Source: Candidatus Zhuqueibacterota bacterium
GTDB taxonomy: Bacteria > Zhuqueibacterota > Zhuqueibacteria > Thermofontimicrobiales > Thiofontviventaceae
DNA: 64,000 bases
Assembly (NCBI GenBank): GCA_036351795.1
Contig: JAZBPW010000125.1
Coordinates: 27,171 to 91,170, forward strand
Reading direction: 5' to 3'
The position numbers and the translations under genes were made by a program. Below the pieces are notes generated by a model, which saw only the letters and a list, made by a program, of their open reading frames with translations, was not told where the DNA came from and made no database searches. Below are positions 48,148-52,268 of this stretch, one piece after another. Within the stretch, counting starts at the first letter, position 1. Every line of letters starts with the position of its first letter.

Positions 48148-48218
48148 TGGGGAGTCGTCCAGTGGCAGGACACACGGCTCTGGACCGTGGAACCGGGGTT
48201 CGAATCCCTGCTCCCCAG
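48148..48218 (+). tRNA. tRNA-Gln(CTG)
   Basis: TGGGGAG/CTCCCCA acceptor stem, CACGG-CTCTGGA-CCGTG anticodon arm. Confidence 0.95.
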
Positions 48219-48240
48219 CAAAGTGAGCGAATGTTATTGC

Positions 48241-48314
48241 GCGCCCGTAGCTCAATTGGATAGAGCATCTGACTTCGGATCAGAGGGTTGGGGGTTCGAT
48301 TCCCTCCGGGCGTA
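48241..48314 (+). tRNA. tRNA-Arg(TCG)
   Basis: GCGCCCG/CGGGCGT, TCTGA-CTTCGGA-TCAGA. Confidence 0.95.
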
Positions 48315-48334
48315 CGTTCTTGCAATAAAAATAT

Positions 48335-48407
48335 GGCGCGTTCGTCTAGTGGCCTAGGACGCCGGCCTCTCACGCCGGTAACACGGGTTCGATTCCCGTA
48401 CGCGCTA
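48335..48407 (+). tRNA. tRNA-Glu(CTC)
   Basis: GGCGCGT/ACGCGCT, CCGGC-CTCTCAC-GCCGG. Confidence 0.95.
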
Positions 48408-48471
48408 CAAGTAGATCGGTAAGCAATACTGATCAGGGTTTGACCGGACATGATGTCTGTAAAGACCAGTT

Positions 48472-48545
48472 GCGCCCGTAGCTCAATTGGATAGAGCGTC
48501 TGGCTACGGACCAGGAGGTTGGGGGTTCGATTCCCTCCGGGCGTA
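48472..48545 (+). tRNA. tRNA-Arg(ACG)
   Basis: GCGCCCG/CGGGCGT, anticodon loop CT-ACG-GA. Confidence 0.95.
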
Positions 48546-48577
48546 CACAAAGATGCTGCACGAATCGGATAACGGGT

Positions 48578-49036
48578 ATGTCGGAACACGAAAAATGGAT
48601 GTCACTGGCTTTTGCTGAAGCGGAAAAAGCCTACGAAAAGGGTGAAGTGCCGGTGGGTGCAGTCGTTGTTTCTGAAAACAGAATTATCGGTCGTGGACAT
48701 AATCTGATAGAGACATTGCAGGATCCGACGGCGCATGCAGAAATGCTGGCCATTACAGCCGCGGCAAATCATTTTGCCTCCTGGCGGCTGGAAGATACTG
48801 CTCTCTATGTCACTCTGGAACCCTGTCCCATGTGCGCGGGTGCAATACTCCTCGCGCGTATTGACAGTGTTTACTATGGTGCTCAAGATCCAAGACTTGG
48901 TGCCTGTGGAACAACACTTAATCTGTGTAATAATGCAGCGCTGGATCTGTCGGCGCCTGTAACAGGTGGCATACTCGAAGAAAAATGTCGGGCGATTTTA
49001 CAGGAATTTTTTACAAGAATTCGAAACAAAAATTAG
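48578..49036 (+). CDS. tadA: tRNA adenosine(34) deaminase TadA
   Basis: GEVPVGAV, DPTAHAE, TLEPCPMCAGA. Confidence 0.95.
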   Translation: MSEHEKWMSLAFAEAEKAYEKGEVPVGAVVVSENRIIGRGHNLIETLQDPTAHAEMLAITAAANHFASWRLEDTALYVTLEPCPMCAGAILLARIDSVYYGAQDPRLGACGTTLNLCNNAALDLSAPVTGGILEEKCRAILQEFFTRIRNKN

Positions 49037-49124
49037 GAGAGGTGCCGGAGCTGGCTTAACGGGGCGGTCTCGAAAACCGTTGTACCTTCGGGTACCGGGG
49101 GTTCGAATCCCTCCCTCTCCGCCA
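49036..49124 (+). tRNA. tRNA-Ser(CGA)
   Basis: GGAGAGG/CCTCTCC, loop CT-CGA-AA, long variable arm, encoded CCA; G1 is the last base of the tadA stop codon. Confidence 0.95.
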
Positions 49125-49132
49125 TAATATTT

Positions 49133-49227
49133 GGAGAGATGTCCGAGTTGGTCGAAGGAGCACGATTGGAAATCGTGTGAGGGGCCACAAGCTTCCTCCG
49201 AGGGTTCGAATCCCTCTCTCTCCGCCA
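49133..49227 (+). tRNA. tRNA-Ser(GGA)
   Basis: GGAGAGA/TCTCTCC, CACGA-TTGGAAA-TCGTG, long variable arm, encoded CCA. Confidence 0.95.
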
Positions 49228-49231
49228 CGAT

Positions 49232-49304
49232 GGGGCAGTAGCTCAGTTGGGAGAGCGCCAGAATCGCACTCTGGAGGTCGTGGGTTCAACTCCCATCTGC
49301 TCCA
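49232..49304 (+). tRNA. tRNA-Ala(CGC)
   Basis: GGGGCAG/CTGCTCC with the G3-U70 alanine identity pair; CCAGA-ATCGCAC-TCTGG. Confidence 0.92.
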
Positions 49305-49307
49305 CAA

Positions 49308-49578
49308 GCTGTGCTAGACGGGGAGCTAGCGGTGCCCTGTAACCTGCAATCCGCTATAGCAGGGTTGAATTCCCTTCCTGAGGTTAGCTCGTCGAATAAG
49401 AAATATCAGTAAGCGATGTTGATGGTTCAAGTCCTGCGCAATAGAATGCTGCCCAACCCCGTCAGGACCGGAAGGTAGCAGCGGTAAGTATGCAATTCTA
49501 TGTGCCGCGGGATTGCTTGACTGGAGTTGGCTGCTGATTTTCTCATTTGAAAAGAGAGATCGAAGTGGGGTGCACAGC
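49308..49578 (+). ncRNA. ffs: Large (Alu-domain-containing, Bacillus scRNA-type) signal recognition particle RNA
   Basis: Terminal pairing GCTGTGC/GCACAGC; Alu-like GCGGTGCCCTGTAACCTGCAATCCGC; S-domain GTCAGGACCGGAAGGTAGCAGC; ~271 nt; directly upstream of dnaX. Confidence 0.92.
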
Positions 49579-49664: not shown

Positions 49665-51302
49665 ATGTCTTATCTGGTCCTGGCACGCAAATGGCGTCCG
49701 ATGACATTTGAGGAGGTTATTGGTCAAAAACATGTCGTGATAACCATCCAAAACGCGATTAAGAGCAACCGTCTCGCGAACGCTTATCTCTTCGCCGGTC
49801 CGAGGGGCGTTGGTAAAACCACTGTCGCCCGGATTCTCGCCAAAGCAATCAACTGTGAAAATGGACCAACCCCTACGCCATGCAACGAATGTGCCTACTG
49901 TCAGGATATCACACAGGGCAGAAGTCTTGATGTACTTGAAATTGACGGAGCTTCAAATCGCGGGATCGATGAGGTCCGCAATCTGAGAGAGAATATCAAG
50001 TATGCGCCGTCCCGGGGCAAGCACAAGATCTATATAATCGATGAAGTTCATATGCTCACAGATCCGGCGTTCAATGCGTTGTTGAAAACGCTTGAAGAAC
50101 CGCCCAAAAATGTGATGTTTATTTTTGCGACAACAGAACCGCATAGAATTTTACCGACCATTCTTTCCAGATGCCAGCGCTTCGATTTCAAGCGTATCAC
50201 GCATGCAGAGATCATGGAACATTTGAAAAATATGAGCGAAAAGGAATCTATCAAGATCGAAGCCGAGGCTCTTCATTTGATCGCAACAAAATCTGACGGA
50301 AGCATGCGTGACGCACAGAGCCTGCTGGATCAGGCGGTCTCTTTCTCCGGAGAAGAGATAACCTCAAAAGAAGTGGCAGAGCTTCTTGGTGTGATTGACC
50401 AGGAAATTTTCTTCAGAACAACACAACTGTTATCGAAAAAGGACAGAAAAGCTGGACTTGAACTTATCGATGAAATCTTTAAGAGTGGATTTGATCTCAC
50501 TGAGTATCTCGCCGGTCTGAATGAACACCTCAGAAATATATTGTTGGTCAAGGCAACGCATTCAGTCGACCTGTTGGAAACATCGGATAGCATCACTGAT
50601 AAATACAGATCCGGCGCAGAGGATTTTGGTGAGCAAGATCTGCTCAGACTCATTAACATCATTTCAGACACAGAGTATCTTATTAAGAGAAGCGCAAATA
50701 AAAGATTAACATTAGAAATTGCTTTAATGAAATTAATTAATGTTTCTTTTACCAAAGAAATAGATGTGCTTCTGACTGAAATAGGAGATATAAAGAATCA
50801 GATATCCAATACTGATCTCCGGGCATCAGTGAATGTGACTGAAAATAAACAGACCCCTGAAAAAAAAAATGATAATCCAGTCAGAATCGCAGAAAAAGTA
50901 ACAACGAAAGCTGAAAATAATAGCAAAACAGTACGCATCGAAGATGTACAGGAGCGTTGGCCGGAAATTGTCGATGAGGTGAAGAAGATCAAGATTGCCA
51001 TGGGGTCATTCTTGAACGAAGGTGTTCCTACGAAAATCGAGGATAATACTGTGGTGATATCGTTTGGTACCCAGAATGGATTCCATATGGAAAATGTCAT
51101 GAAAAATCCCCGCATCATCGAGAATATGATGAACAAGCTCTTGCAAGCCGATTTAAGGATAAGGTGTATTAAAGACAGCAGCCTTGTCACCGATGAAAAG
51201 GCTGTTGATCAGGGAAGAGACATTATACTGGAGAAACTGGCCTCGGAGGTATCTCAGGTAAAAACAATACTCGAAGTGTTCGATGTGGAAATTATTCGAT
51301 AG
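49665..51302 (+). CDS. dnaX: DNA polymerase III subunit tau/gamma
   Basis: YLVLARKWRP, GPRGVGKTT, CNECAYC zinc motif, EIDGASNRGID, IIDEVHML, ALLKTLEEPP, SRCQRF. Confidence 0.98.
   Translation: MSYLVLARKWRPMTFEEVIGQKHVVITIQNAIKSNRLANAYLFAGPRGVGKTTVARILAKAINCENGPTPTPCNECAYCQDITQGRSLDVLEIDGASNRGIDEVRNLRENIKYAPSRGKHKIYIIDEVHMLTDPAFNALLKTLEEPPKNVMFIFATTEPHRILPTILSRCQRFDFKRITHAEIMEHLKNMSEKESIKIEAEALHLIATKSDGSMRDAQSLLDQAVSFSGEEITSKEVAELLGVIDQEIFFRTTQLLSKKDRKAGLELIDEIFKSGFDLTEYLAGLNEHLRNILLVKATHSVDLLETSDSITDKYRSGAEDFGEQDLLRLINIISDTEYLIKRSANKRLTLEIALMKLINVSFTKEIDVLLTEIGDIKNQISNTDLRASVNVTENKQTPEKKNDNPVRIAEKVTTKAENNSKTVRIEDVQERWPEIVDEVKKIKIAMGSFLNEGVPTKIEDNTVVISFGTQNGFHMENVMKNPRIIENMMNKLLQADLRIRCIKDSSLVTDEKAVDQGRDIILEKLASEVSQVKTILEVFDVEIIR
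50859..50872 (+). other. Candidate programmed slippage/frameshift site in dnaX (A10 followed by a -1 frame TGA)
   Basis: GAA AAA AAA AAT GAT: A run at 50860-50869, TGA at 50870-50872 in the -1 frame, at codon ~400 after domain III. Confidence 0.6.
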
Positions 51303-51319: not shown

Positions 51320-51661
51320 ATGAATATTGGTGATTTTGGATCAATTTTTAAAAACATGCAAAAACTCAAAGATGAAATTGCGAAGGTACAGCAGCAACTG
51401 GAGCAGATAGAGGTGCAGGGAAGTGCCGGTGGCGGTATGGTGACTGTAACAGCGAACGCACGGATGCAAATATTGCAGGTGAAGATTGAGGATGACGTGT
51501 ACAAGTCTGATGACAGGGAAATGCTGGAAAATCTGATCGTATCCGCTATGAACCAGGCGATCGAGAACGCTCAGAAAAAAGCAAATGAACAGATGAGTGA
51601 AGCAACAGGCGGATTACTCAGGAATTTGCCGGAAGGGCTGAACATCCCGGGTATTATTTGA
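51320..51661 (+). CDS. ebfC: YbaB/EbfC nucleoid-associated protein
   Basis: GSAGGGMVTVTAN, EMLENLIVSAMNQA; lies between dnaX and recR. Confidence 0.93.
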   Translation: MNIGDFGSIFKNMQKLKDEIAKVQQQLEQIEVQGSAGGGMVTVTANARMQILQVKIEDDVYKSDDREMLENLIVSAMNQAIENAQKKANEQMSEATGGLLRNLPEGLNIPGII

Positions 51662-51668
51662 GGGGAAT

Positions 51669-52268
51669 GTGATGCCTTATTTTGCAGAATCGGTTCAGAA
51701 AGCGGTGGATGAATTATCGAAGTTGCCCGGAATTGGTAAAAAATCTGCTCAACGACTTGTCTTTTATCTGATGAAGTTACCAAAAACCGAGGTTGAATCA
51801 CTCACCGATGCGTTGATAGAGATCAAGGACAAAGCGAAGTATTGTTCAATATGCTTCAACATCACGGAAGAAGATCCATGTCCAATATGTTCGAATAACA
51901 GACGTGACCACAGAACAATTTGCGTCGTTGAAGAGGCAAGAGATGTCGTCGCTCTTGAGAAGACAGGGGAATTCAGAGGATTGTATCATGTTCTCGGCGG
52001 GGCTCTATCCCCACTCGACGGAATCGGGCCTGACGATTTGAAAATCAAAGAGTTGATGACACGCTTGAAGGATGAGGTACAGGAAATTATCATTGCGACG
52101 AATCCGAATACTGAGGGCGAGGCAACGGCCATTTATCTGTCAAGACTCATAAAGAATCTTGATATACGAGTAACAAGGATTGCCAGAGGGATTCCGATGG
52201 GGACGGATCTTGAATATGCCGATGAAATTACGTTAACGCGTGCCATTGAAGGTAGAACGCGTTATTAA
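51669..52268 (+). CDS. recR: Recombination mediator RecR
   Basis: LPGIGKKSAQRL, CSICFN...CPIC, CVVE, YHVLGG.LSPLDG, ATNPNTEGEAT. Confidence 0.98.
   Translation: MMPYFAESVQKAVDELSKLPGIGKKSAQRLVFYLMKLPKTEVESLTDALIEIKDKAKYCSICFNITEEDPCPICSNNRRDHRTICVVEEARDVVALEKTGEFRGLYHVLGGALSPLDGIGPDDLKIKELMTRLKDEVQEIIIATNPNTEGEATAIYLSRLIKNLDIRVTRIARGIPMGTDLEYADEITLTRAIEGRTRY

Follow-up and report, generated by a model that had tools for sequence, protein, structure and literature searches.

The dnaX gene of the analysed stretch of DNA (64 kb in length, hereafter the window) is a single open frame on the forward strand (49665–51302, +), and the ORF list, Pfam domains and matches to PDB structures agree on a tau protein of 545 aa and 61.7 kDa. 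Its product begins with the domains DNA_pol3_delta2 (aa 21–178) and DNAX_ATPase_lid (aa 183–229), followed by domain III (DNA_pol3_gamma3, PF12169; aa 232–361, 50358–50747, +), which is the last domain common to gamma and tau, and by the tau-specific domain DnaX_C (PF20964; aa 419–499, 50919–51161, +), both assigned by Pfam. Residues 1–296 are collinear, one-to-one, with the gamma/tau structures of E. coli (PDB matches, E 7e-82). The neighbourhood shows the usual ffs-dnaX-ybaB-recR order, with the SRP RNA gene ffs upstream (49309–49577, +; Rfam RF01854, 173.8 bits) and ybaB (51320–51661) and recR (51669–52268) downstream according to the ORF list. The region 5' of dnaX is a dense RNA gene cluster (48148–49577), in which seven tRNA genes are arranged around tadA (48578–49036) and are followed by the large SRP RNA, located 88 nt upstream of the dnaX start.

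The open frame of dnaX passes through a run of ten A residues (A10; 50860–50869, +), the proposed slippage site, which was located by reading the sequence and by script. The run covers codons 399–402 with its first A at codon position 2, in the context CCT GAA AAA AAA AAT GAT (0 frame, P398-E-K-K-N-D). The run thus falls into the linker, 38 residues past the end of domain III (aa 361) and 20 before DnaX_C. It is followed by stop codons in both shifted frames, namely a TGA in the -1 frame 0 nt past the run (50870–50872, +) and a TAA in the +1 frame 29 nt past it (50899–50901, +). In addition, the run contains an in-phase heptamer A_AAA_AAA (50861–50867), with the -1 stop one codon further on. 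A transcript with eleven A's, or a -1 shift of the ribosome, would yield a product of 402 aa and 45.4 kDa with the end ...QTPEKKK. Transcripts with nine or twelve A's would yield products of 411 or 412 aa (46.4–46.6 kDa) ending in ...EKK(K)MIIQSESQKK at the TAA; for the A9 product (411 aa, 46.4 kDa) the predicted C-terminal end before the stop is ...PEKKMIIQSESQKK, and the two kinds of predicted shifted-frame peptides are ...QTPEKKK and ...EKKMIIQSESQKK. Transcripts with ten or thirteen A's would encode full-length tau of 545 or 546 aa and 61.7 kDa. A two-ORF layout, in which the 0 frame ends just past the run, does not occur in the window. The initial annotation, made from the letters and their open reading frames, had described the A10 run with stops in both shifted frames, had placed it in the linker past domain III, had given a product of about 402 aa and about 45 kDa (E399-K-K-K-TGA) for one extra A or a -1 shift and termination at 50899 for one A fewer, and had called the run the longest homopolymer noticed in the window; the computed anatomy bears out all of these points, the second longest homopolymer being a T9 at 1259–1267.

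Selection against A/T runs has been reported to appear at a length of nine nucleotides in many genomes (PMC1088944). The host assembly (3.15 Mb in 195 contigs, about 75% complete, 48% GC and mesophilic-looking) contains 6 A/T runs of length 10 and 49 of length 9, and sense-strand runs of at least nine A's are present in about a dozen plausible genes. Judged on the host genome alone, the A10 run in dnaX is therefore only mildly unusual. The presence of A9–A10 runs in about a dozen other host genes also implies that slippage at such runs would be either modest in this organism or tolerated. For example, sense-strand A10 runs occur early in the coding sequences of pth (C83:1898–1907, aa 77) and of a gamma-glutamyltranspeptidase-like gene (C12:19196–19205, aa 81); at these two sites slippage may be tolerated, or the runs may be recent mutations or assembly quirks.

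The comparison with related genomes gives a different measure of the run. We used dnaX from 40 genomes of 10 families in the same class, with 37 of the genes complete, and found a homologous run of A9–A13 in 18 of these 37. All 19 runs of at least nine A's in the dnaX genes of relatives are confined to the linker past domain III, corresponding to 19 per 12.2 kb of linker versus 0 per 53 kb elsewhere in dnaX; the dnaX flanks, counted on both strands, hold 4 per 88 kb. Carriers of the run are distributed over six families (f1, 5/5; f4, 4/4; f9, 3/3; f7, 1/1; f8, 1/1; f2, 4/12). In the window's own family the run is present in all five genes, with lengths of A10, A11, A10, A11 and A13, at 37–38 residues past domain III. 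By comparison, the A10 run of pth, which served as a control, is present in 0 of 29 relatives. Because it is conserved among relatives, and there in the linker only, the A10 run of dnaX lies beyond chance. In one gene of the set (L019), a single linker holds two separate A9 runs (aa 414 and aa 439) together with two A7 runs, and close stops in both shifted frames follow after each.

Several features of these runs indicate that selection acts on the nucleotides and not on the encoded peptide. The runs of relatives begin at codon position 1, 2 or 3, and even within the window's family three codon phases occur and the sequences flanking the run are unalignable, with tau in frame every time. Furthermore, the run is retained in dnaX genes of 61–65% GC, in which the remaining Lys codons are mostly AAG (for example, 4 AAA versus 17 AAG in L006). 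When the longest A run past domain III is compared over 110 complete dnaX genes, its length distribution is bimodal, with a mode of 10 and few runs of 7–8, while the longest run inside domains I–III does not exceed 8 in any gene. On a DnaX tree built from domains I–III alone the trait is clustered, requiring 6 changes versus about 13 with shuffled labels (0 of 500 shuffles as low), and the run is fixed in two deep clades. Accordingly, the 19 runs are not independent events, as the tree requires about 4–6 changes.

The stop codons behind the run show a related pattern. Among the relatives, the median distance from the run to the next stop is 12 nt in the -1 frame and 13 nt in the +1 frame, versus 42 and 42 nt at other linker positions (Mann-Whitney p of 3e-5 for the -1 frame, 1e-3 for the +1 frame and 2e-6 for the farther of both), and a whole-gene null gave a similar result. 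The sequences that supply these stops vary from genome to genome; therefore, the stops must have arisen anew many times. Their closeness in both frames points to a mechanism populating both frames, as only such a mechanism needs both. Conservation of run and stop in orthologues, which the initial annotation had suggested as a check on its reading, is thus seen for both elements.

In E. coli, dnaX uses programmed -1 ribosomal frameshifting at A_AAA_AAG, supported by an upstream Shine–Dalgarno (SD) element and a downstream stem-loop. The window shares with this system the gene and the boundary, a -1 stop one codon past an A-rich slippery site and a gamma length of about 400–430 aa. It differs by the absence of AAG, of an SD stimulator and of a stem-loop, by two tRNA-Lys species and by stops in both shifted frames. 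We found neither a hairpin downstream of the run (50870–50960, z -0.05) nor structure upstream of it (z +0.39) in the window, and the 30 nt preceding it lack an SD-like motif, as the initial annotation had supposed when it saw no upstream SD and no downstream hairpin. Similarly, the downstream 60 nt of 44 run-bearing genes gave no hairpin signal (median z -0.12), and an SD-like 5-mer lies upstream in 1 of the 44 versus 5% at control positions. A search for an intrinsic terminator near the A10 run found none. Stimulators of the E. coli type were therefore rejected for the window and for the 44 run-bearing genes, and slippage of the type described for Thermus thermophilus is favoured over -1 frameshifting of the E. 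coli type.

Altogether, we consider it probable that programmed transcriptional slippage of the kind described for T. thermophilus dnaX takes place at the A10 run and that the short product is chiefly made in this way. RNA polymerase would transcribe ten template T's, and the weak rA:dT hybrid could realign, giving mRNAs with ten A's or a few more or fewer. Translation would then yield tau from A10 or A13 transcripts, the 402-aa product from A11 and the 411- or 412-aa products from A9 or A12. These short products would retain domains I–III as the clamp-loader core but be devoid of the tau-specific C-terminal domain, including DnaX_C, and would thus be gamma equivalents. Slippage in this organism, its efficiency and the use of the short products are what we infer from features directly established at the DNA level, i.e. 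the sequence anatomy, the domain position, the conserved run with stops in both frames and the absence of frameshift stimulators.

One alternative takes -1 programmed ribosomal frameshifting at A_AAA_AAA (50861–50867), with the stop at TGA 50870–50872, to be the main source of gamma, as in E. coli but minus the stimulators. The phase of the heptamer is right, every run of at least nine A's includes an in-phase A_AAA_AAA, the -1 stop adjoins the run and -1 stops are more strongly enriched than +1 stops (see the p values above); the sole two-ORF relative (L024) also requires the -1 frame for tau. However, neither an SD-like element nor a hairpin accompanies the run in the window or in the 44 run-bearing genes, and A_AAA_AAA is far less shift-prone than A_AAA_AAG in E. 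coli (PMC5009743). The host encodes tRNA-Lys(CUU) in addition to tRNA-Lys(UUU), +1-frame stops are enriched as well although a -1 model has no need of them, and run lengths of 9–13 with a mode of 10 and few of 7–8 exceed what a heptamer requires. We therefore regard this route as unlikely to be the main one, while unstimulated -1 ribosomal slippage on A_AAA_AAA may make a minor contribution. The run might also be devoid of any function in expression, with tau alone made in meaningful amounts; it would then be a Lys-rich part of a disordered linker, or mutation bias would maintain it as a hypermutable tract. The linker is indeed of low complexity and rich in Lys and Glu, the host genome favours A at Lys codons (24 AAA to 17 AAG in the window's dnaX), other host genes contain A9–A10 and half of the phylum manages without the run. 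Against this stand the linker-specific enrichment, the GC-rich carriers, the bimodal lengths, the independence of codon phase, the enriched stops of the two shifted frames and the pth control run, which is not conserved. We consider an absence of function very improbable; chance or a Lys-rich linker as the cause of the run was rejected on the linker-specific enrichment, the GC-rich carriers, the bimodal length and the pth control.

A further explanation places the role of the run at the DNA level, where replication slippage would alter its length heritably and switch between alleles with tau in frame and alleles with gamma in frame, thereby tuning the tau:gamma ratio. The lengths within the window's family do vary (A10, A11, A10, A11, A13), with tau still in frame. 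In addition, there is a pair of near-identical congeners in genus g18, L006 (G031) and L024 (G026:C8, approximately 39.6–41.3 kb), whose dnaX genes differ by one base beside an A9 run. Tau is encoded by one uninterrupted ORF in L006, whereas in L024 the 0 frame gives 401 aa, stopping 25 codons past the run, and 489 nt of the -1 frame encode the tau C-terminus. The L024 gene, the only one of this kind among the relatives, thus has the two-ORF layout of Antonov et al. 2013, and represents either a real role reversal within a genus or a homopolymer assembly error. There is one such pair, of which one member may be such an error, and we consider the DNA-level role rather improbable as the main explanation. 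Moreover, a two-ORF allele would still need slippage at the level of RNA or the ribosome for its essential tau; a DNA-level role would therefore add to transcriptional slippage and not replace it.

The run is absent from a considerable part of the class. No linker run exceeds 8 in families f3, f5, f6 and f10 or in most of f2. The interruption of the run by AAG codons in relatives, which the initial annotation had named as a point against its reading, is accordingly found in these families, but not in the window's family, where all five genes keep A10–A13. As about half of the phylum is without the run, gamma made by means of it is either dispensable or replaced by something else. In the run-less relatives we also looked for another in-phase slippery heptamer closely followed by a -1 stop, and found nothing consistent. 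In Caulobacter crescentus, DnaX is processed by ClpXP to a gamma-like form (bioRxiv 10.1101/2022.11.10.516041). This product resembles the short products predicted here in being gamma-like and lacking the C-terminal part, but it arises post-translationally and without a slippery sequence. By analogy, the run-less families could use proteolysis of the Caulobacter type.

The closest known counterpart of transcriptional slippage at the A10 run is the dnaX gene of T. thermophilus. According to two later accounts (PMC1088944 and PMC5009743, describing Larsen et al. 2000 PNAS 97:1683; Yurieva et al. 1997), RNA polymerase slips there on an A9 run that is closely followed by stops in both shifted frames, and gamma results; both-frame stops are given there as a hallmark of this gene. 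The window resembles it in that tau is a single ORF, that a sense-strand run of at least nine A's lies past the clamp-loader core, that stops are close in both shifted frames, that the predicted short products are gamma-like and that ribosomal stimulators are unneeded. The two differ in run length (A9 in Thermus, A10 here) and host, which here belongs to KSB1/Zhuqueibacterota of the FCB superphylum and has a mesophilic-looking genome of 48% GC, and in the kind of evidence, which is experimental for Thermus slippage and derived from sequence in the present case. A second group of genes was reported by Antonov et al. 2013 (PMC3711429, Fig. S3), who listed A10 runs in dnaX of Chlorobium, Prosthecochloris, Pelodictyon, Flavobacterium, Cytophaga, Capnocytophaga and Coraliomargarita. 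These genes have a two-ORF layout in which tau needs recoding, and transcriptional realignment was proposed for them (PMC3711429). They share with the window an A10 run at the same boundary, and the Chlorobi and Bacteroidetes also belong to the FCB superphylum; unlike them, with gamma in the 0 frame and tau by slipping, the window encodes tau in the 0 frame.

Poly-A dnaX genes are hence known by experiment from Thermus (according to the accounts cited above) and by prediction from Chlorobi, Bacteroidetes and Verrucomicrobia (PMC3711429). In the literature compared, the single-ORF kind is documented for Thermus only, because the survey of Baranov et al. 2005 deliberately omitted truncating cases of the window's type. 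The initial annotation had proposed slippage-type gamma production in a further lineage. The comparative evidence fits the slippage part of this proposal, with the mechanism inferred, while the lineage is less distant than it implied, because the phylum KSB1, for which the name Zhuqueibacterota has been proposed, is placed in the FCB superphylum (PMC11683472), and dnaX genes with poly-A runs were already reported from the FCB groups Chlorobi and Bacteroidetes in 2013 (PMC3711429). The case is one of a known mechanism in another lineage, which a recoding specialist would expect and not find surprising.

In addition, we looked at 80 dnaX genes of other phyla among the matches listed. Runs of A9–A11 past domain III are present in 18 of the 80 and a C-terminal variant in 6 of the 80, the resulting 30% being no measure of prevalence as the sample is similarity-ranked and non-random. 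In nearly all carriers among the matches listed, stops in both shifted frames follow within 45 nt. The nearest named sequences among these matches are two 'candidate division KSB1' MAGs (45–49% identity), and both have an A10 run at the same boundary. Single ORFs with a run and two stops were found, among the matches listed, in Ignavibacteriaceae, Omnitrophota, Zixibacteria, Verrucomicrobia, Leptospirales and several Bacteroidota, the last including the cultured Rufibacter hautae (L083), Hymenobacter sp. IS2118 (L088) and Sphingobacterium thermophilum (L102).

The six genes with the C-terminal variant (L070, L082, L085, L113, L114 and L118, from Desulfobacterales, Trichlorobacter and related MAGs) have no run past domain III. 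They carry A10–A11 runs at aa 514–535 of dnaX, 36–45 codons before the tau stop, with stops in both shifted frames 6–44 nt away; L082 has two such runs. To judge from the sequences, slippage at these sites would delete just a conserved C-terminal peptide (...kqkalshPlvadaieiFdgklidvk), and such a position of the run is not described in the literature compared. From the distribution across phyla one could speculate, as a tentative and rather doubtful extension, that poly-A slippage is the commonest bacterial route to a gamma-like DnaX, beyond Thermus and the FCB superphylum. As part of the same speculation, the run might also be a heritable dial, in which one-base changes flip a lineage between a state with tau in the template and gamma from slippage (L006 and the window) and the reverse state (L024), and the device might have been relocated C-terminally in genes of the Desulfobacterota type.

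In three further dnaX genes the frame is divided and an A run is absent. L109 (Cystobacter fuscus Cbf 10, a complete genome) and L115 (Pyxidicoccus sp.) each have a 0 frame of 404 aa, and their tau C-terminus lies in the +1 frame; in L106 (a delta proteobacterium MAG), the 0 frame ends at 392 aa at the junction ATT TGA and the +1 frame continues tau. Just upstream of the junction, the two Myxococcota genes (L109 and L115) share a conserved hairpin, GGAGCG-CCAGGAGGT-CGCTCC, with an SD-like loop. The three junctions are possible +1 recoding sites, or indels.

The finding has consequences for annotation as well as for the biology of the clamp loader. Annotation pipelines call a gene of this kind plain tau and miss its second product, and homopolymer errors at the run can make it mistakable for a pseudogene. 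It is a matter of continuing debate why DnaX is maintained in two forms in bacteria (bioRxiv 10.1101/2022.11.10.516041), and every added lineage with a dedicated device for the short form would give more weight to the view that gamma matters. In this uncultured phylum several families keep the device while others have lost it, which offers a natural comparison of lineages with and without the run.
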